Virus record (IMG/VR): IMGVR_UViG_3300029566_000146
Span: 1-5,290 of that record
DNA length: 5,290 bases
Strand: one strand, 5' to 3'
Source: a virus
How positions within the stretch are numbered: position 1 is the first letter of the stretch; each line of letters begins with the position of its first letter. Under the pieces are notes generated by a model, which did no database searches, was not told where the DNA came from, and saw nothing but the letters and a program-made list of their open reading frames with translations. Below, piece after piece: positions 1 through 5,290 of this stretch. Both the position numbers and the translations under genes were made by a program.

Positions 1-21
1 GATAGCCGCTGAAAAAAAAAT

Positions 22-59
22 CCTCCCCGTGCCTGGTATGGTCGGGGAGGTGTTTTTTT
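22..59. terminator. Bidirectional rho-independent terminator
   Basis: An 8-bp GC-rich stem, CCTCCCCG (22-29) with CGGGGAGG (43-50), encloses a 13-nt loop. It is preceded by A9 (12-20) and followed by TGTTTTTTT (51-59), so either strand reads hairpin plus U-tract. It lies 3 nt past the stop (63-65) of the minus-strand gene. In frame 1 of the + strand (gat agc cgc) a TGA falls at 10-12, which could be the end of an upstream + strand gene. Confidence 0.8.
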
Positions 60-62
60 ATT

Positions 63-299
63 TTAAAATCTCGTGAATATTTTCCCGTCTGTTGTCTGCG
101 CGATTTTTTCCCAGAAGATTTCGTCAAGATATCTTGTTGTATCAACATAGTTAATGTCGATGCGCTTGACGATGAAAAAGTCATAAAACTCTTCTTCTTC
201 GTTCACTGCGGTGAACTTAAATGCTTTGTATTGATAGTTTTTCGTGTAGACGATTCCTTCCGTAAAGACCTTTTCGAGAAATTCTTTTTTGACTTTCAT
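63..299 (-). CDS. Hypothetical small acidic protein (78 aa), function unknown
   Basis: Intact ORF with ATG start. A Shine-Dalgarno AAAGGAGA (complement of 307-314) begins 14 nt before the ATG. A consensus promoter lies upstream and a terminator directly downstream. I recognise no motif and no obvious helix-turn-helix. Codon preference is C-ending (gtc, atc, gac, aac, ttc, tac), unlike the T-ending + strand block. Confidence 0.75.
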   Translation of the reverse strand: MKVKKEFLEKVFTEGIVYTKNYQYKAFKFTAVNEEEEFYDFFIVKRIDINYVDTTRYLDEIFWEKIAQTTDGKIFTRF

Positions 300-326
300 T
301 GTTTTATCTCCTTTCCTTTTATGCTT

Positions 327-370
327 CTATTGTAGCATAGAAATTTCTATTTGTCAATAGGAAATTCTAT
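327..370. promoter_or_regulatory. Phased CTAT/ATAG operator-like array, including a perfect 14-bp palindrome
   Basis: The array is CTAT 327-330, ATAG 337-340, CTAT 347-350, ATAG 357-360 and CTAT 367-370, alternating every 10 bp. The longer word TTCTAT recurs at 325, 345 and 365 (20-bp spacing). ATAGAAATTTCTAT (337-350) is a perfect palindrome that fills the spacer of the minus-strand promoter. Confidence 0.55.
329..357 (-). promoter_or_regulatory. Sigma-70/SigA-type promoter for the 78-aa gene
   Basis: Read on the minus strand, the -35 is TTGACA (complement of 352-357), the spacer is exactly 17 bp (335-351), and the -10 is TACAAT (complement of 329-334). The predicted transcription start near 321 leaves a short leader containing the Shine-Dalgarno site. 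Confidence 0.7.
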
Positions 371-400
371 TTTCTTTTTGAAAAAAACGCAGGCAGTTGC

Positions 401-552
401 CACGTTTAGTCACGCGATAGCGTCTCCACCGCGGCCCCCGTCCCCGCAAGGGCAAAGCCCTTGCCCTTCCTAAACAGGCTGGCAGGGGCTTTCGATACGT
501 AGTGACTGCCGTGACGGCGGGAGCCGGTGGGCGTGAGTGTAATACGCCCACC
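401..552 (+). other. GC-rich, hairpin-dense non-coding island (candidate phage intergenic origin, packaging region or att junction)
   Basis: My hand count gives 96 G+C in 401-550 (64%), against visibly AT/T-rich flanks. Hairpin 1 is 446-464 (GCAAGGGC aaa GCCCTTGC, 8 bp). Hairpin 2 is 506-520 (CTGCCG tga CGGCGG, 6 bp including one G-U). Hairpin 3 is 526-552 (8 bp). Only low-complexity R/P/G-rich ORFs without ribosome-binding sites cross the island. Confidence 0.5.
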
Positions 553-557
553 TTTTT
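526..557 (+). terminator. Intrinsic-terminator-like hairpin at the 3' edge of the GC island
   Basis: GGTGGGCG (526-533) pairs with CGCCCACC (545-552) around an 11-nt loop, followed directly by TTTTT (553-557). The A-run needed for minus-strand function is absent, so it would act on + strand transcripts only. Confidence 0.5.
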
Positions 558-568
558 GTAATTTCCTC

Positions 569-597
569 TTGACAGCTCCTTCATATTGTGGTAACAT
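569..597 (+). promoter_or_regulatory. Sigma-70/SigA-type promoter with extended -10, upstream of the Rep gene
   Basis: The -35 is TTGACA (569-574), the spacer is 17 bp (575-591), and the extended -10 is TGgTAACAT (589-597). The predicted transcription start is near 604, downstream of the GTG at 588 that the ORF track uses as the Rep start. Confidence 0.7.
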
Positions 598-629
598 TTA
601 GCCAAGGAAATGAAAGGTGGTTTTCTCAC

Positions 630-1766
630 ATGAAAACGGTTGTTAAACTTGACTATGCTACTTTTGCTTTTGAGCAAGGTTCGATTTCTATTCCTAAAAT
701 CGAAGACGCGCTTGCTCAGTGTGACTTACATTTTGCGCAGACTTCCAACGCAAGTGAGAATTCCCCCTACAATTCCCCTGCGGGTCTTTTCTTTAAGCCG
801 AACAACGGCTCGAAACAGTCTCCGCACTCCTTGCAAGTGTCCGGTCATGGTTGTGAGCTTTTCCGTTCCACATTGCCGCGGCTTGCTTCACTGATGCATG
901 ATGGTCACGAATTCGGTCACTTTTCCCGTCTCGATTTTTGCTTTGATGTTGTCATGACAAAGCATCGTTGGCGCGAGTTTTATTTGGGTGTTATTTCTGC
1001 TTCTGTGGATGAAATGAATTGCCCTGAAAAAGCCCGTAAGGTTCGCAAGTTCATGTATCAGGGTTACGGCGATTCTACTACCGTTTATATCGGGCGCAGA
1101 ACGTCTTCTGCGGTTTTTTGCCGTATCTATAATAAATCCCTGCAAGACCCTGATAAAAAGCTCTGTACGGCTTCTGGTGAGCTTCTGGAATGCCCCGATG
1201 ATTCTTATATCATTCGTTACGAGATTGAGTTGAAGTTTACTTCTCGTGTACGTTCTGGTTCTCGTTCCGTTTATGACCCGTCTCCGCTTTTCTGGTTTTA
1301 TTATGAAGACCCTGAGAATCTCTTCGCTTATCTTCGTAAAGTCTGGAATCGTTACGGGAATGAAACTCTTCTCCCTGATGGTTGGGAAGATATGCAGTTT
1401 GTGACTGATATTGAAGCCCGCAACATTCATTTTGTTAGGGACTTATTGCATCCCCTTAGTAATGACCTTGCACAAAAGTTTTCCGTTTCTATCCATACCG
1501 AAGAACAAAAAATGTCTTATGTTGCTACTGTCTTTGGGCATCGTATCATTGATATCCTTCTTTATCGTCCTGAGCTGCTTTTCCTCTCTTGTTGCAAGTG
1601 GGAGCAGTTTTACAATGAACGTCTTACGTTCTCCCCTCTCGCACTGACTCAGGAAGTCGCGCAATTCTTTGAGTCTTCGCGCATTGCCGTTGAGGAATTC
1701 CGTGAAGTTGTTGAAGACCCCTCTCCCTTTAGTGAAGATGGGTTTGATGATATATCTTTATTCTGA
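630..1766 (+). CDS. Rolling-circle replication initiator, Rep_trans-like (RstA / pT181 RepC type)
   Basis: Long intact ORF. I prefer the ATG at 630 because a Shine-Dalgarno AAAGGTGG sits at 613-620 and the promoter overlaps the GTG at 588. Motifs RIYNK (1122-1136) and RYEIELK (1215-1235) match my memory of the conserved R-I/F-Y-D/N-K and RxExE blocks of the Rep_trans family (PF02486). The position as first gene, ahead of a small ssDNA-binding protein, fits filamentous phage layout. Confidence 0.8.
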   Translation: MKTVVKLDYATFAFEQGSISIPKIEDALAQCDLHFAQTSNASENSPYNSPAGLFFKPNNGSKQSPHSLQVSGHGCELFRSTLPRLASLMHDGHEFGHFSRLDFCFDVVMTKHRWREFYLGVISASVDEMNCPEKARKVRKFMYQGYGDSTTVYIGRRTSSAVFCRIYNKSLQDPDKKLCTASGELLECPDDSYIIRYEIELKFTSRVRSGSRSVYDPSPLFWFYYEDPENLFAYLRKVWNRYGNETLLPDGWEDMQFVTDIEARNIHFVRDLLHPLSNDLAQKFSVSIHTEEQKMSYVATVFGHRIIDILLYRPELLFLSCCKWEQFYNERLTFSPLALTQEVAQFFESSRIAVEEFREVVEDPSPFSEDGFDDISLF

Positions 1767-1784
1767 TGAAAGGATGGTCGCACT

Positions 1785-2027
1785 ATGAAAGTTACTGTAG
1801 TTGGTAAGTCCCGCCGCGCTGGTACATCTAAGCAGGGCAAAGACTATGATTTTACCACTCTCATGGCCGAATATTCGATGCGTGCAAACGATGACAATGA
1901 CGGCGTTCAGGTTGATAGAATCAATGTCGAAGCTCGCATGATGCCGTATGCGCTCATTGTCGTTGGCGCTATGTATGACCTCGATTTTGACCGCAACGGT
2001 TATCTTCTCGGAATTGAGGAAGTCTAA
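1785..2027 (+). CDS. Gene-V-like ssDNA-binding protein (80 aa)
   Basis: ATG start with AAAGGATGG at 1769-1777. Its size and position right after Rep fit Ff gene V. The segment RRAGTSKQGKDYDF (1812-1853) resembles the M13 gVp DNA-binding wing TRSGVSRQGKPYSL as I recall it (G-x-S-R/K-Q-G-K-x-Y). A C-terminal G-x-x-Y ... F ... G-x-L pattern is also similar. Confidence 0.65.
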   Translation: MKVTVVGKSRRAGTSKQGKDYDFTTLMAEYSMRANDDNDGVQVDRINVEARMMPYALIVVGAMYDLDFDRNGYLLGIEEV

Positions 2028-2063
2028 CTTCCTTTGTTCAAACCCAAATTTCATTTCCTATTG

Positions 2064-2083
2064 GAGAGCGGTTATCCGCTCTC
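2064..2083 (+). other. Perfect 8-bp hairpin 4 nt upstream of the tRNA
   Basis: GAGAGCGG (2064-2071), loop TTAT, CCGCTCTC (2076-2083). No U-tract follows, so it is not a canonical terminator. It sits between the ssDNA-binding gene stop (2027) and tRNA position 1 (2088). Confidence 0.5.
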
Positions 2084-2087
2084 ACAT

Positions 2088-2161
2088 GGCGGGGTGGTGC
2101 AACGGTAGCACGTCAGTCTCTGAAACTGAAACTGCTGGTTCGAATCCAGACCCCGCAACCA
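2088..2161 (+). tRNA. tRNA-Gln (anticodon CTG at 2120-2122) with encoded CCA
   Basis: I folded the cloverleaf by hand. The acceptor is 2088-2094 with 2151-2157 (six G-C pairs plus a G1-A72 mismatch), and U8 is 2095. The D stem is GTGC/GCAC (2097-2100 with 2108-2111) and the D loop is AACGGTA with the GG dinucleotide. The anticodon stem is TCAGT/ACTGA (2113-2117 with 2125-2129), and the loop CTCTGAA has U33 and A37. The variable loop has 4 nt. The T stem is GCTGG/CCAGA (4 bp plus a G49-A65 mismatch) and the T loop is TTCGAAT. The discriminator is A2158 and the CCA is 2159-2161. Confidence 0.75.
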
Positions 2162-2209
2162 AAACGGACTTGACCTCCGTTATTCGATGTCGCGAAAGGT
2201 GGTGACGAA

Positions 2210-3397
2210 GTGAATAATAAGCATCGGTGCTTGTTTAAGCGCTTCGCCGCCCTTGTCGCGGCTCTGTTATCTTGTCTTTGTCTTTGTTTTCCTTGTTTTG
2301 CTTCTAACAATGCCGCTACTTTCGAGTGGGTTGTTTCTGATGAAAAGCAAATGTACGCTGAAAATGGACAGTTAACTCGATATTTACAGCTTTCTCCATT
2401 TGTTGATGGACAATTTTATGCGGCTACGTTTGAAACTCGTTTTTTGTCTTATCGTGGTTCGTATTATGTCGGCCCTCATACTGATAGCCCTTCTTATCAT
2501 ACTTACCCTCAAGTATGGGGTTGTCCTGTAAATTATCCTGATTGGTGGCGCGCCGATTTACCGCTTGGTCGCACTTCTTATGTTCAGTTTGATAAACTTA
2601 AGTTTATCTCTTCTGGTTCTTCTCCTTTGTTTTCAGATTTAACTTCGGTTTCTTTTTTACCTCAAAATAAGATTTATTCTTTTGATATTACTGCTGACCA
2701 AGTTGTTCAAAAACAAAAATATCCTGACCCCGATGTTCATTTGTCTGGGAAGTTTCCTTTTTATCTAATTTATACTTATTCTCAGGCTACTAATAATGAT
2801 GTTAATGATAGTTTTGTCGGTGCTGATTTACTTTGCCTTACTGGTATGCCTGTTTCTTATAATGCTTCGTCTCCTGTTATTTATACTATGTTTGAAGATC
2901 AGTGTGTTTTGGCTTTGAATCAAAACAATCTCCATTATTCTTATGTTTGGATTGATTCTATGGCGAACGCCTCTTTAAGTCAAATTGAATGGCTTGTTAT
3001 GCCTAATATTTGTGATTGGACTGATGAGCAGAAATTACAACTCAATAACAAAATTTTGAAAGTTTCTGCTGAGGTTTCTTTCTGGATTGATGCTAACAAG
3101 CTTCCGGCTGGTTTGGAAGTTGGTGATACTTTCCCCGCTCCTGCGGCTGACCCCTTAGGCGATTTACAGAAGAAATTGTTGGAAGATTATAAAATACAGG
3201 ATAATATTACTGACACGCAGGATTATTTAGATGAAGCTATTAATGGCTTTGATTCTGTCGATTCTGATGTTGCTTCCGGTGCTTCTGGTCTTCTCGGCGG
3301 TCTTTTCCAGAATTTAGATTCGTTTCTCTTCTCTGTTTCCCTCCTTTGCCTTGGTGCTGTTTTTCTCCGCATAGTCCTTAGAAAGGCGGTTGACTGA
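2210..3397 (+). CDS. Secreted, C-terminally membrane-anchored structural protein (395 aa); candidate adsorption or minor coat protein (g3p-like architecture)
   Basis: GTG start with AAAGGTGG at 2195-2202. The N-terminus has a signal peptide: a basic n-region MNNKHRCLFKR, a hydrophobic core, then either ...CFA/SN (signal peptidase I type) or LLSC (lipobox-like). The C-terminus has a hydrophobic segment LFSVSLLCLGAVFL followed by the basic tail RIVLRKAVD, as in filamentous phage g3p. The assignment rests on architecture only, and I recognise no sequence motif. Confidence 0.6.
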   Translation: MNNKHRCLFKRFAALVAALLSCLCLCFPCFASNNAATFEWVVSDEKQMYAENGQLTRYLQLSPFVDGQFYAATFETRFLSYRGSYYVGPHTDSPSYHTYPQVWGCPVNYPDWWRADLPLGRTSYVQFDKLKFISSGSSPLFSDLTSVSFLPQNKIYSFDITADQVVQKQKYPDPDVHLSGKFPFYLIYTYSQATNNDVNDSFVGADLLCLTGMPVSYNASSPVIYTMFEDQCVLALNQNNLHYSYVWIDSMANASLSQIEWLVMPNICDWTDEQKLQLNNKILKVSAEVSFWIDANKLPAGLEVGDTFPAPAADPLGDLQKKLLEDYKIQDNITDTQDYLDEAINGFDSVDSDVASGASGLLGGLFQNLDSFLFSVSLLCLGAVFLRIVLRKAVD

Positions 3398-3528
3398 TGA
3401 CTTTTCTTGCCTTCTTCAAATCAGTTTTTAGCCTTTTCGGTGATGCTGGCCTTTTTCTCATCGCTCTTGTTGTTTTCCTTGTCGGCTTCGGTATTTATAA
3501 GTTTGTTAAGGATTGGTTACCATGGTAG
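3397..3528 (+). CDS. Small hydrophobic membrane protein (43 aa), candidate minor virion or assembly protein
   Basis: Absent from the ORF track because of its size. The ATG overlaps the upstream stop (TGATG at 3395-3399). AAAGG at 3382-3386 has the same Shine-Dalgarno-to-start distance as the other genes. Translation: MTFLAFFKSVFSLFGDAGLFLIALVVFLVGFGIYKFVKDWLPW, with one transmembrane segment and a basic C-terminus. Confidence 0.6.
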   Translation: MTFLAFFKSVFSLFGDAGLFLIALVVFLVGFGIYKFVKDWLPW

Positions 3529-3686
3529 ATTTTGTTGCAACTCTCGGTGTAGTTACTTCGTTTGTTTATAATGTGCTTAATATGCCGTTTCTCCATTTTG
3601 GTACTTATGGCGGCTTAGTCCTTATGCTTTTTTTGCTTACTCTTGTTGGTTTCGTTCTCCGTAGTCTTTGGAATGGGGGTGATTAA
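3522..3686 (+). CDS. Small hydrophobic membrane protein (54 aa)
   Basis: Absent from the ORF track. ATG 3522 overlaps the previous ORF by 7 nt (ATGGTAG). AAGGA lies at 3508-3512. Translation: MVDFVATLGVVTSFVYNVLNMPFLHFGTYGGLVLMLFLLTLVGFVLRSLWNGGD, with two hydrophobic stretches. Confidence 0.6.
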   Translation: MVDFVATLGVVTSFVYNVLNMPFLHFGTYGGLVLMLFLLTLVGFVLRSLWNGGD

Positions 3687-3688
3687 TA

Positions 3689-4300
3689 ATGGAAGTACCA
3701 AGTATTATCAAAACTTGGGTTGATTCTGACGGCGTTACCGTTTATACTGTGGAGTATAAAGATGGTAGTACTTGCGATATGACCGTGCAGCAGTATGATT
3801 ATCTCATGGCGTCTGCGCAGGCTGTCGCCGATATGGACGCTAAAGCCGCTGCTGAATCTCCCTCGGAAGCTGCTTCTGCTCCTGAGCAACCCGCGCAGAA
3901 TATTACCGAATCTCCAGACCTCCGCGTTGGCTATGTGCCGGAGGAAGTTGAATTGCCTTTTGAGGGGAGTATGACCGCTTATGATGACCGCGCCGCAGAT
4001 ACTCCGGCTCTGTATGCTAATCTCCCTAACGTCTCTAATAGTTTCACTGCTATTATGGATTGGTTCGGAGATACGTTTTTCATCGAACGTACTGAAACGG
4101 TGCATAAGTCCGGCTATACGTCCGAAAGGTATTCCTATAACAGTTCGACTCAACTTATTCAGCTCCCTTATGAGGAAGATTCAACTACTACGACTCAGGT
4201 TCTCAACCCTCAAGCTTGCGTTTCTGCTTTGCTTGTTGTCCTTGTCTTCATTACTACTGTTACATGGATTAAAAACGCGATTTGGGGGCGCATGAGTTAA
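3689..4300 (+). CDS. Tail-anchored acidic protein (203 aa) with A/P/E/S-rich linker; candidate second minor coat or adsorption-complex protein
   Basis: ATG start with GGGGGTGA at 3675-3682, 2 nt after the previous stop. No N-terminal signal peptide. A low-complexity linker covers residues 41-76 (about 3809-3916). A C-terminal transmembrane segment CVSALLVVLVFITTVTW (about 4214-4267) precedes the tail IKNAIWGRMS. Confidence 0.7.
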   Translation: MEVPSIIKTWVDSDGVTVYTVEYKDGSTCDMTVQQYDYLMASAQAVADMDAKAAAESPSEAASAPEQPAQNITESPDLRVGYVPEEVELPFEGSMTAYDDRAADTPALYANLPNVSNSFTAIMDWFGDTFFIERTETVHKSGYTSERYSYNSSTQLIQLPYEEDSTTTTQVLNPQACVSALLVVLVFITTVTWIKNAIWGRMS

Positions 4301-4413
4301 TGCAAATTCTTCCTTTACAGTATTGTTTCGGTATCTTCTCTGTCCCCGAGATTGGTTATTTTATTATCTTCGCTGCTGTTTTCTCTATGTTGGTTCTCCT
4401 GCTCCGTTCGTGA
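4300..4413 (+). CDS. Small hydrophobic protein (37 aa)
   Basis: Absent from the ORF track. The ATG overlaps the upstream stop (TAATG at 4298-4302). A G-rich Shine-Dalgarno lies at 4284-4288. Translation: MQILPLQYCFGIFSVPEIGYFIIFAAVFSMLVLLLRS. Confidence 0.5.
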   Translation: MQILPLQYCFGIFSVPEIGYFIIFAAVFSMLVLLLRS

Positions 4414-4511
4414 CAGGTTCCATAAATATTTTTATGAAAGGATGATGACTTCAGGCTGCTACCTCTACTATTGCTACGCTGCTTTCTCAGGTCGGTGAAT
4501 TTTTCACCCAA

Positions 4512-4640
4512 ATGATTACTTGGATGGGTCAGCTCTTGGACTTCTATGAAGCTCAGCCGATTCTCCTTGTTTTCGTCCTCCTCGCCATCGGTGGTATTGT
4601 CCTCCGTATCCTTCGCCGCTGGATTCCCGGTCGTTCCTAA
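4512..4640 (+). CDS. Candidate major coat protein (42 aa from ATG 4512; frame is open from 4449)
   Basis: Translation: MITWMGQLLDFYEAQPILLVFVLLAIGGIVLRILRRWIPGRS. It has an acidic N-terminus, one transmembrane helix and an Arg-rich C-terminus, as in Pf3 and Ff major coat proteins. It is followed at once by the strongest terminator in the window, as Ff gene VIII is. The start is uncertain (see findings). Confidence 0.55.
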   Translation: MITWMGQLLDFYEAQPILLVFVLLAIGGIVLRILRRWIPGRS

Positions 4641-4647
4641 CGATTGA

Positions 4648-4695
4648 GAGAAAACGCCGCCGACCATTTTAATGGTCGGCGACGTTTTCTCATTT
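4648..4695 (+). terminator. Strong rho-independent terminator after the coat gene
   Basis: Positions 4648-4667 pair with 4672-4691, giving 19 bp with one C-A mismatch at 4657/4682. The GC-rich core is CGCCGCCGACC/GGTCGGCGACG. It is followed by TTTTCTCATTT starting at 4685. Confidence 0.75.
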
Positions 4696-4712
4696 AGAAA
4701 GGATTATATGTT

Positions 4713-5290
4713 ATGCTTTATGGTATTCTTCTCTTTTGTATTTGCTGGCTTTTTGTATATATCGATAATTATTGCAAAAACCCCTACAAGCTGGAGGCTG
4801 TTGTTGGTTCGAAAGGTTCTGGCAAGTCTCTGTATATGTCTCGTGTTGCTGATAAGTGGCTACGTGCTAATAAGGGGCTTATCTATAGTAATATGGGTAT
4901 TGGTTATGAGTTAGAGCCTGAATACTGGAAACAAACCTTCATCCCTGATTCCCTTATTCTTATTGATGAGATAGGTGTGCTGCACTCTAATCGTGATTTT
5001 AAAACTATGCCCCGTGAAGCTGTCGAGTTTTTCAAGATGCAGCGCAAGTATCATTTGACGATTATTGTATCGTCTCAGACCATGGACTTTGATAAAAAGA
5101 TACGTGACCTCTGTGACCGTATTTATCTCTGCAACCGTATTGGCTGGTTCTGCCGTCTTACTCCCTATCGCTCTTGTATCGCTATGGAACATCGCCCCGA
5201 GGGAGGGCAAGAACTGGTCAACACGGTGCGCAAGGCAGGGCGGGCAAGGTGGTATACTATCCCCAAGTCCGTGAAGCAGGTAAGTACCTT
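4713..5290 (+). CDS. Zot / pI-family filamentous phage assembly ATPase, 3'-truncated by the window edge
   Basis: Missing from the ORF track because there is no stop in the window. My own frame-3 translation is open from ATG 4713 (in-frame TAG at 4695-4697, AAAGGA at 4698-4703) to 5290. Walker A is GSKGSGKS (4806-4829) and Walker B is LILIDE (4953-4970). The sequence is colinear with M13 pI as I recall it: GKLGSGKT, LLVLDECGTWFNTRSW versus LILIDEIGVLHSNRDF, and IIFLVQDLSIVDKQAR versus TIIVSSQTMDFDKKIR. Confidence 0.9.
   Translation, partial: MLYGILLFCICWLFVYIDNYCKNPYKLEAVVGSKGSGKSLYMSRVADKWLRANKGLIYSNMGIGYELEPEYWKQTFIPDSLILIDEIGVLHSNRDFKTMPREAVEFFKMQRKYHLTIIVSSQTMDFDKKIRDLCDRIYLCNRIGWFCRLTPYRSCIAMEHRPEGGQELVNTVRKAGRARWYTIPKSVKQVST

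Follow-up and report, generated by a model that had tools for sequence, protein, structure and literature searches.

A tRNA(CUG) gene in a small gut inovirus is probably a dedicated initiator for a coat gene that opens at CAG

Initiator transfer RNAs (tRNAs) with altered anticodons start translation at cognate non-AUG codons, and initiation factor IF3 inspects codon-anticodon complementarity, not AUG itself (PMC11744186; bioRxiv 10.1101/2021.05.25.445580). The examples described in these papers are the E. coli tRNAfMet(CUA) "amber initiator," an i-tRNA(AAC), and 31 tRNAini variants, all of them laboratory constructs on the body of the formylmethionine initiator tRNA (tRNA-fMet) that keep its three G-C pairs and A11-U24. 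In vivo, the CUA variant receives Gln (PMC11744186). Here, we analyzed 5,290 nucleotides (nt) of the IMG/VR virus record IMGVR_UViG_3300029566_000146 (positions 1 to 5,290, called the window), which make up nearly the whole of an ~5.3-kb circular gut inovirus genome. We found that the window carries a gene for a tRNA(CUG) at 2088-2161 and that its putative major coat protein gene opens at CAG, the codon cognate to this tRNA. We consider it highly probable, from comparative sequence evidence, that the tRNA is a phage-encoded initiator dedicated to a private start codon of the coat gene.

The phage pair would resemble the engineered initiators in using a cognate non-AUG start behind a Shine-Dalgarno sequence and a start signal closed to the host initiator; a 1:72 mismatch is common to both, and the Gln charging of the CUA variant is the amino acid system that we infer for the phage tRNA. 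The phage tRNA differs in being natural, in having a Gln-type body without the two retained elements of the engineered tRNAs, in serving one viral gene, and in occurring in at least four anticodon versions. Large double-stranded DNA phages also encode tRNAs; these are elongators in arrays that serve internal codons in genomes of tens to hundreds of kilobases, for codon supplementation or evasion of anticodon nucleases (PMC10264068). In the window, a single tRNA matches one start codon. Eukaryotes are known to initiate without Met, with Leu-tRNA at CUG and, on the intergenic-region internal ribosome entry site of dicistroviruses, at Ala or Gln codons. There, too, synthesis is initiated away from AUG and the first residue is not Met; however, the tRNAs are the host's own elongators, aided by special factors or structured RNA, with no viral tRNA and no Shine-Dalgarno sequence. 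At our locus, we found two sequence features expected of a private initiator and start pair: a ribosome-binding site followed by a noncanonical first codon, and a tRNA in the same genome whose anticodon is complementary to that codon and covaries with it. Full-text literature searches returned no paper mentioning a CAG start codon, no link between inoviruses and tRNA-Gln or initiator tRNAs, and nothing on the "bajarodino" genomes that figure below. The only counterparts found for such a system are engineered.

A sequence-only reading of the window, made without database searches, had proposed a complete tRNA-Gln(CUG) gene at 2088-2161, unlikely to be due to chance and placed between the replication and structural modules. 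We found that this segment is a genuine tRNA gene under structural selection. ARAGORN called a single tRNA in the window, a tRNA-Gln(ctg) at 2089-2157, and the Rfam family RF00005 matched 2088-2158 over model positions 1-71 of 71 with 53 bits (E = 1.2e-9), against a gathering score of 29; the copies of relatives scored 50.5-63.5 bits. Every core feature that had been listed could be read in the sequence: U8 (2095), A14 (2101), and G18G19 (2104-2105), a 7-nt anticodon loop C-U-CUG-A-A (2118-2124) with the anticodon at 2120-2122 between U33 and A37, the T-loop TTCGAAT (2139-2145), the G53-C61 pair, A73 (2158), and an encoded CCA (2159-2161). The two G·A mismatches that had been noted are also there, at 1:72 (2088/2157) and 49:65 (2134/2150). 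The ARAGORN call is shorter, as an alternative fold, because these mismatches permit it; on relatives, ARAGORN returned the standard 74-nt form.

The tRNA(CUG) gene was present in all nine fetched contigs and GenBank genomes, which cover the window clade and distant carriers, and in 32 of the 36 IMG/VR relatives, the other four contigs ending before the slot or being cut at it. Every relative whose contig covers the slot thus has the tRNA there, and in the window it is flanked, as had been read, by the ssb gene and the g3-like gene. We counted 36 distinct tRNA sequences among about 45 genomes of the window clade and its relatives, and the anticodon is CTG in all 36. Among seven copies, 8 of the 21 helix pairs vary on both sides; among 26 sequences, 16 of 21 do, and 94.3% of the cells are paired. 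None of 500 shuffles reached any of the observed measures, and shifted-register controls were about 40% paired. The bases of the universal tertiary interactions and the 7-nt anticodon loop are conserved in nearly all copies. Because of this conservation and covariation, a chance origin of the tRNA is excluded. A profile search with a narrower alignment of the Zot protein recovered the same clade only.

Some copies depart from the standard form. The copy in L045 (1577-1650; relatives are cited by L numbers) has an 8-nt anticodon loop (CUACUGAA) and a D-loop short of one G, and ARAGORN gives it the 4-base anticodon actg; the copy in L037 (5134-5207) has G33 in place of U33. Both genomes retain the CAG coat start. 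Sequencing error, decay, or true variation could account for these two copies. The window clade, whose Zot proteins are at least 94% identical, contains two quite different types of tRNA(CUG), one in the window and a second in L021, L027, L029, L030, L037, and L047. Their D-stem, anticodon arm, and T-arm are not alike, and the loop of the second type is UUCUGAG; both retain G1·A72, A73, and the CUG anticodon. The coexistence of two types in one clade suggests fast evolution or exchange under constant functional constraints. In three GenBank records, no tRNA is annotated and the g3-like coding sequence runs across it: L073 (MT135307), 1664-2986; L294 (PQ006104), 2442-3914; and L306 (PQ006172), 3550-5124.

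To examine where the coat gene starts, we aligned 46 distinct relatives. The sequence GAAAGGR-TGATGACTT-CAG is nearly invariant, and the CAG itself is present in 46 of 46. In the window, an in-frame TGA TGA closes the coat frame upstream of the CAG, there is no in-frame ATG, GTG, or TTG before 4512, and the spacing from AAAGG to the CAG is the same as that to the starts of ssb, the g3-like gene, and Zot. Insertions and deletions straight after the CAG are 3 or 6 nt long. Variability at the three codon positions is 0.12/0.043/0.237 between the CAG and ATG 4512 and 0.059/0.016/0.251 in the rest of the open reading frame (ORF), and the leader upstream of the CAG showed no codon periodicity in the alignment. 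The 62-residue product is 41% identical (E = 3e-19), over residues 3-61, to an ATG-start protein of Dulem virus 75, a virus without the tRNA; because the match spans these residues, what precedes Met21 has a translated homologue. Relatives that begin Met-Glu have their residue 2 (Glu) opposite the first Gln in alignment A3. By these comparisons, the coat frame of the window is one that opens at CAG.

The coat gene might instead start canonically at ATG 4512, or in some other way independent of the tRNA, and the matches between anticodons and first codons would then be coincidental. An ORF finder does list the ORF as 42 amino acids from ATG 4512, gene callers skip the ORF or would call this short form, and an in-frame ATG is conserved at the position (GTG in two relatives). 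However, no Shine-Dalgarno sequence is suitably spaced from ATG 4512, and the 20 codons upstream of it have coding periodicity, in-frame insertions and deletions, and homology to the translated N termini of ATG-start relatives. Nor do other lineages have a counterpart of this internal ATG close to their Shine-Dalgarno sequence. Coincidence would also have to produce four anticodon/codon pairs and three matches out of three in a blind test, both described below, when the background rate is about 17% for each genome and codon. We regard this explanation as very improbable.

The product of the CAG-start frame has 62 residues, with a hydrophobic core (ILLVFVLLAIGGIVL) and a basic C terminus (RILRRWIPGRS), and a terminator follows the gene. 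Inovirus major coat proteins have about 50-70 amino acids, a hydrophobic helix in the middle, and a basic C terminus, and this architecture identifies the window version as a putative one. The window protein had no Pfam or PHROG match and none in the PDB. Its homologue in L006 matched phrog_2186, "virion structural protein" (E = 5e-6), and PF25631 at E = 0.047, below the cutoff. The CAG-start coat gene of L006 (bajarodino virus 50, PQ006129; 4511-4717) is unannotated in GenBank, and in PQ006172 (L306) a different ORF (5601-5984) is labeled "major capsid protein."

We compared the anticodon with the first coat codon in 29 distinct elements. CUG goes with CAG in 11 elements, CGU with ACG in 6 genomes, AGU with ACU in 3, and UGU with ACA in 1; the 8 genomes without a tRNA all start the coat gene at ATG, GTG, or TTG. 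Every independent CUG carrier has a Shine-Dalgarno sequence followed after 7-9 nt by a CAG that opens a coat-like ORF. These carriers are L005, L006, L073/L074, and L303 and the bacterial assemblies L132, L123, L149/L104, L122, L109, and L136; the coat starts of L005 and L073/L074 read AAAGGGGTG...CAG GAT ACT. In many CUG carriers, the tRNA lies about 20-50 nt upstream of the CAG, forming a tRNA-plus-coat cassette, and in L006 the coat gene comes right after the tRNA. In viruses without the tRNA, homologous coat genes have canonical starts behind good Shine-Dalgarno sequences: ATG in Dulem virus 75 and bajarodino virus 60, GTG in bajarodino virus 79, and TTG in bajarodino virus 44.

For an unbiased panel, we picked 12 complete GenBank inoviruses by Zot similarity alone (tblastn). 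Eight of the 12 carry exactly one tRNA (1 CUG, 5 CGU, and 2 AGU), which contradicts the earlier view that a tRNA gene is unusual in so small a phage; the 4 genomes without a tRNA use an ATG or GTG coat start. In the CGU carriers (L294, L298, L299, L300, and L302), the Shine-Dalgarno sequence is followed after 5-8 nt by ACG, and in the AGU carriers (L296 and L304) after 5-8 nt by ACT. The first codon switches between close relatives. The coat proteins of L303 (CAG) and L300 (ACG) are 82% identical, and their N termini align within one residue; those of L073 (CAG) and L299 (ACG) are 73% identical. In a blind test, we fetched three further carriers, found by BLAST with a CGU-type tRNA, before viewing their coat genes. 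The anticodon matched the first codon in all three: L305 has CGU and GAAAGAAGG+7+ACG, L307 has AGU and GGGAGG+7+ACT, and L306 pairs UGU, the fourth anticodon, with AAAGGGGG+7+ACA and lacks any canonical start in frame upstream. Homologous coat proteins (...TIIGQAGDIVTE...) in L296/L307, L306, and L294 start at the synonymous Thr codons ACT, ACA, and ACG, and the first anticodon base (A, U, or C) is the Watson-Crick partner of the third base of ACT, ACA, or ACG, respectively. We also ran a crude scan for a Shine-Dalgarno sequence plus a given codon opening a membrane-like ORF of 45-80 codons with a basic tail. It found a site with the cognate codon in 14 of 14 carriers; noncognate special codons scored in 4 of 28 and 5 of 24 genome-by-codon cells. 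L155 and L125 were left unscored, the DNA obtained for them not reaching the coat gene. None of the roles that the sequence-only reading had listed for the tRNA predicts a coat frame that opens at its cognate codon, the pattern found for four anticodon/codon pairs.

One lineage has two tandem coat-like paralogs (L005, 3775-3954 and 3967-4131; L073, 4323-4505 and 4521-4685; L299, 844 and 1046; L302, 791 and 994; L304, 265 and 62; L305, 913 and 1118). Mostly, CAG, ACG, or ACT, whichever is cognate to the tRNA, opens the upstream copy, and ATG or TTG opens the one after it; the order is reversed in L304, where the ATG copy comes first. The paralogs could be two coat proteins that differ in regulation or N terminus.

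The same evidence bears on whether the tRNA is an ordinary elongator tRNA-Gln, which would decode internal CAG codons or replace a host tRNA-Gln lost to an anticodon nuclease. Codon supply or replacement is the standard explanation for phage tRNAs. The body of the phage tRNA is that of the cellular tRNA-Gln(CUG) type (74 nt, D-arm, 4-nt variable loop, and A73), and a weak or absent 1:72 pair is an identity element for glutaminyl-tRNA synthetase (GlnRS) and GatCAB and so belongs to tRNA-Gln identity. One tRNA could in principle serve both jobs. Phage tRNAs that evade host nucleases are documented (PMC10264068). Codon usage is ordinary, however: the count of 7 CAG and 6 CAA codons in the Rep gene, given earlier as a reason to doubt simple codon compensation, is exact, and over 1,452 codons we counted 33 CAG and 23 CAA, with no skew. 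We dropped codon supplementation as the main role on this ordinary usage. Neither an elongator nor a decoy against anticodon nucleases, which the tRNA may also be, predicts a cognate first codon at Shine-Dalgarno distance in the start-less coat ORF of every carrier, a switch to ACG, ACU, or ACA along with the anticodon, or ATG, GTG, or TTG in relatives without the tRNA. Cellular and most large-phage tRNA-Gln(CUG) genes keep U1-A72, and in several members of the family position 37 is a pyrimidine, an oddity in a tRNA that decodes in the A site. We therefore consider an ordinary elongator unlikely as the explanation.

One trait of the tRNA itself, its 1:72 mismatch, also supports the dedicated initiator. 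We compared the tRNA with cellular genes in a scan of one genome per bacterial species; the figures refer to the 80 matches listed. Of these, 71 are cellular tRNA-Gln(CUG) genes with a paired U1-A72, mostly from PVC-group bacteria and Patescibacteria. The 74-nt, A73 members of this class share with the phage tRNA the length, the D-arm (GGUGUAAYGGUAGCAC), the 4-nt variable loop, G2-C71, C3-G70, A72, A73, and the anticodon loop, and the acceptor stem of L005 differs from the class only at position 1. They differ from the window tRNA in pairing U1-A72 where it has G1·A72, and they do not lie beside a start-less ORF opening with CAG. Position 1:72, which had been singled out earlier as significant, is mismatched in 18 of 23 inovirus tRNAs (alignment A6), with G, C, or A opposite an invariant A72. 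Among large-phage tRNA-Gln(CUG) genes, 8 of 10 keep U1-A72; these genes sit in tRNA arrays, mostly next to tRNA-Gln(UUG).

BLAST of phage genomes gave annotated tRNA-Met genes as the top non-inovirus matches, including the Salmonella metZWV initiator (L072), the best full-length one. With such bacterial tRNA-fMet, the phage tRNA shares an unpaired 1:72 with A72, G2-C71, C3-G70, G4-C69, A73, and CCA, as well as the anticodon loop C32-U33-NNN-A37-A38, and C1 variants such as L024 and L053 have the identical acceptor stem CGCGGGG...CCCCGCAACCA. It differs in its anticodon (CUG, not CAU), its length (74 versus 77 nt), its 7-nt D-loop, and its 4-nt variable loop. We dropped a derivation from tRNA-fMet, since the length, D-arm, variable loop, A73, G2-C71, and C3-G70 are those of the cellular tRNA-Gln(CUG) class. 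With the anticodon masked, the best isotype for the window tRNA is Gln at 0.75, tied with Met, in a reference set biased toward Gln. Judged from its sequence, then, the tRNA is a Gln-type body with an initiator-like acceptor end, outside the tRNA-fMet family.

The CGU and AGU tRNAs have the same 74-nt body and A72, and G1·A72 occurs in three of the five CGU tRNAs of the panel (L298, L299, and L302) and one of the two AGU tRNAs (L304). With the anticodon masked, CGU and AGU tRNAs are nearer to tRNA-Gln than to tRNA-Thr bodies, a comparison that is weakly informative with a Gln-dominated reference set. The discriminator base tracks the anticodon class (alignment A6), with A73 accompanying CUG and C73 or U73 accompanying CGU or AGU; this suggests adaptation to different aminoacyl-tRNA synthetases. 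The pyrimidine at position 37 is, for example, C37 in L073 and L294, and is unusual for A-site decoders.

These observations can be joined in a model. The coat mRNA would present a good Shine-Dalgarno sequence and then, after 9 nt, CAG in place of ATG, GTG, or TTG. The host initiator (CAU) mismatches CAG at two positions and would not read it. The phage tRNA would pair fully with CAG, enter the P site, and start the protein, probably with Gln. An unpaired 1:72 is a determinant of formyltransferase recognition and EF-Tu exclusion (PMC11744186), and the 1:72 mismatch of the phage tRNA, with G2-C71, C3-G70, and A73, would direct it to formyltransferase and IF2 and away from EF-Tu. The tRNA-Gln class already has G2-C71, C3-G70, and A73, and a broken 1:72 may be the one change needed for an initiator-like acceptor end. 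In relatives, the same body with anticodon CGU, AGU, or UGU would start the coat protein at ACG, ACU, or ACA. The model supposes that the tRNA is transcribed, excised by RNase P and RNase Z, charged with an amino acid, formylated, and admitted to the P site despite the missing three G-C pairs. Speculatively, the phage might benefit because coat synthesis would be gated by the level of its tRNA or its genome copy number, or because a coat protein without a cleaved signal peptide would gain a Met-free N terminus (Gln or pyroglutamate, or Thr). We also think it likely that gut Clostridia inoviruses carry a family of such private initiator tRNAs, with a Gln-derived body, a usually unpaired 1:72, and an anticodon matched to a CAG, ACG, ACU, or ACA coat start; synthesis of the coat protein, the most abundant of the virion, would then depend on a viral tRNA, and its N terminus would lack Met.

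Several points weigh against this interpretation. The three G-C pairs of tRNA-fMet (29-41/30-40/31-39) are absent, the window tRNA having A-U, G-C, and U-A, and no member of the phage family has all three. The phage tRNA has U11-A24 where tRNA-fMet has A11-U24; U11-A24 occurs in 25 of 26 aligned rows, including every phage tRNA, the exception being the Salmonella tRNA-fMet row. Five inovirus copies (L109, L136, L294, L296, and L300) have a paired, weak U1-A72, and a C1·A72 tRNA(CUG) also occurs in two large phages and one apparently cellular Planctomycete copy; therefore, the mismatch is not required and is not confined to these phages. The ACG of L300 is preceded by a TTG, one codon away and at 4-nt spacing, L005, L073, and L303 have an in-frame GTG inside the Shine-Dalgarno sequence, and ACG is near-cognate to AUG and might be weakly readable by the host initiator. 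The lineages are related, and counts of them overstate their independence. Fifteen metagenome tRNA(CUG) cassettes came from a pattern that required CAG, so they add lineages but make a biased test. The name "major coat protein" is putative, and the family match holds for the L006 version only. Finally, all of the support is comparative; expression, charging, and the coat N terminus are predictions from it.

An early form of the argument, that position 1 is never U, was true of the first 36 distinct sequences and was refuted by the five paired copies named above; the mismatch is enriched, not obligatory. The C1·A72 tRNA(CUG) genes outside inoviruses share the acceptor CGCGGGA...UCCCGCAACCA. They lie in tRNA arrays in L055 (IMGVR_UViG_3300029156_000001, 169 kb; 2379-2454), L058 (IMGVR_UViG_3300038492_000258, 182 kb; 3906-3980), and L148 (a Planctomycetaceae metagenome-assembled genome; 2363-2436). 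When the metagenome pattern was run without the anticodon, 96 of 120 loci were 3' ends of ordinary initiator tRNAs.

The position of the tRNA in the genome bears on two further explanations. We found a promoter-like site upstream of rep that is likely, from its sequence, to be the start of a long transcript spanning rep, ssb, the tRNA, and the structural genes; on the + strand between this site and the tRNA, there is no promoter-like site with at least 10 of 12 matches, and a weaker match (9/12) lies at 1522-1549. Because the tRNA is inside this predicted single transcription unit, RNase P and RNase Z would have to cut it out. Such cutting could itself be the purpose, as the sequence-only reading had suggested, separating the rep-ssb message from the structural message and setting their stabilities. 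The tRNA does lie within one promoter-to-terminator unit (569-597 to 4658-4681), always where two modules meet (rstB or rep precedes it, and g3 or the coat gene follows), and a hairpin stands immediately 5' of it in all lineages. For punctuation, however, the acceptor and T arms suffice, which leaves the clade-strict anticodon (CTG in 36/36) and its covariation with the start codon unexplained. We consider punctuation highly unlikely as the reason for the presence of the tRNA; it may be a by-product of its position, and to that extent, as a plausible side effect, the suggestion stands.

The other explanation is a role at the DNA level, with the segment as an attP-type site or, in the packaged single strand, as a cloverleaf that acts as a minus-strand origin or packaging signal. 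Hairpins in single-stranded DNA (ssDNA) serve filamentous phages as origins, and the window phage encodes no integrase. Some inoviruses integrate at tRNA genes (PMC8530359). In our data, three human gut metagenome contigs with identical Rep are circular permutations of one another, and in this circular genome phage genes lie on both sides of the tRNA. It is also internal in L136 (a 114-kb bacterial contig) and L132 (an Oscillibacter isolate), with Rep upstream and coat downstream. An attP site normally holds the 3' fragment of a tRNA only, whereas here the complete gene is present. We therefore rejected an attP site or prophage junction on context, and with it the case, named earlier as one that would undo the claim, of a host tRNA gene at a prophage junction. 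A DNA hairpin has no need of the conserved tertiary bases and 7-nt anticodon loop, and an origin leaves the covariation of anticodon and codon unexplained. The GC-rich nested inverted repeats at 392-552 (392-405/497-510, 454-465/481-492, and 526-534/544-552) are a better candidate for an ssDNA origin or packaging signal. A DNA-level role is extremely improbable.

If the dedicated initiator is real, this would be the first natural virus to supply an initiator tRNA of its own for a start codon closed to the cell. The reading of phage tRNAs, now viewed only as elongators, would change, and a mobile element would be seen to reprogram, in trans, the choice of start codon in bacteria. A dedicated initiator would account for the 1.4% of a 5-kb genome given over to a tRNA (the share in the 5.3-kb genome) and for the absence of coat genes from many gut inovirus annotations, gene callers systematically overlooking them. 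It would also supply ready-made orthogonal initiator and start codon pairs for Gram-positive synthetic biology and a natural test of which initiator features (the 1:72 mismatch, the three G-C pairs, and formylation) are required. A cultured candidate host with a related element is Oscillibacter sp. MSJ-31.

The features of the window are collected in Table 1.

Table 1. Positions of genes and sequence elements in the window
Feature	Position	Strand	Basis or remark
Small gene	63-299	-	Start at 299
Promoter-like site	357-329	-	Divergent from 569-597 site
Promoter-like site, TTGACA-17-TAACAT, with TG	569-597	+	Upstream of rep; consensus match only
Rep (Rep_trans)	630-1766	+	PF02486, 31.6 bits; phrog_27843, E = 2.8e-256
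RstB-like small DNA-binding protein (ssb)	1785-2027	+	phrog_929, E = 6.5e-4
Hairpin GAGAGCGG-TTAT-CCGCTCTC	2064-2083	+	Ends 4 nt 5' of tRNA
tRNA(CUG), 74 nt, encoded CCA	2088-2161	+	ARAGORN; Rfam RF00005
g3-like gene, 395 amino acids	2210-3397	+	Downstream of tRNA
Shine-Dalgarno AAAGGA plus extension (AAAGGATGATGA)	4437-4448	+	Includes in-frame TGA TGA, 4443-4448
CAG, inferred start codon, cognate to tRNA CUG	4452-4454	+	9 nt after Shine-Dalgarno
Putative major coat protein gene, 62 codons plus stop, QAATSTIATLLSQVGEFFTQMITWMGQLLDFYEAQPILLVFVLLAIGGIVLRILRRWIPGRS	4452-4640	+	Homology, architecture
Terminator-like hairpin	4658-4681	+	10-bp stem, 7 G-C pairs, T-rich tail; directly 3' of coat gene
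Stand-alone Zot-type assembly ATPase	4713-5290	+	PF05707; phrog_25712, phrog_197; runs off window end

The host of the window phage is probably a member of the Clostridia. Gut inoviruses with a stand-alone Zot have been assigned to Clostridiales/Firmicutes via CRISPR (PMC8530359), and we found related elements in Oscillibacter, Acutalibacter, Oscillospiraceae, and Lachnospiraceae assemblies. Pig "Inovirus sp." genomes are close relatives, with about 80% nucleotide identity. In the cultured isolate Oscillibacter sp. MSJ-31 (L132; NZ_JAHLPT010000037.1, an 8.7-kb contig), the related element occupies 66-6035, in the order RstB-like protein, 341-amino-acid Rep with a P-loop, tRNA(CUG) with C1·A72, CAG-start coat gene, 596-amino-acid g3-like protein, and Zot.

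The RstB-like gene is directly upstream of the tRNA in the window, its close relatives, L006, and L306, and GenBank labels an "RstB-like protein" just upstream of the tRNA in the latter two. Several small membrane proteins and a 203-amino-acid protein are encoded between the g3-like gene and the putative coat ORF, and the Zot ATPase has 204 amino acids in full-length contigs. The hairpin before the tRNA may act in RNA processing or termination, or it may work in the ssDNA. A stem-loop stands 4-6 nt 5' of the tRNA in every lineage examined (L004-L009, including L005 and L006, and L104, L122, and L149), its structure conserved and its sequence different; (Y)AT usually stands between it and the tRNA. 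The versions in L104, L122, and L149 are long inverted repeats (GTAACAC...GTGTTAC).

We found overlapping palindromes, ATAGAAATTTCTAT and similar, that are operator-like, between the divergent promoter-like sites (window 327-370) and adjacent to the inverted repeats of 392-552. Window positions 279-366 match 2737-2820 of a human gut Microvirus (OP549876.1) with 82% identity over 88 nt. The matching region is the operator/promoter just upstream of the start of the minus-strand gene (299), an unexpected sharing between unrelated ssDNA phage groups.

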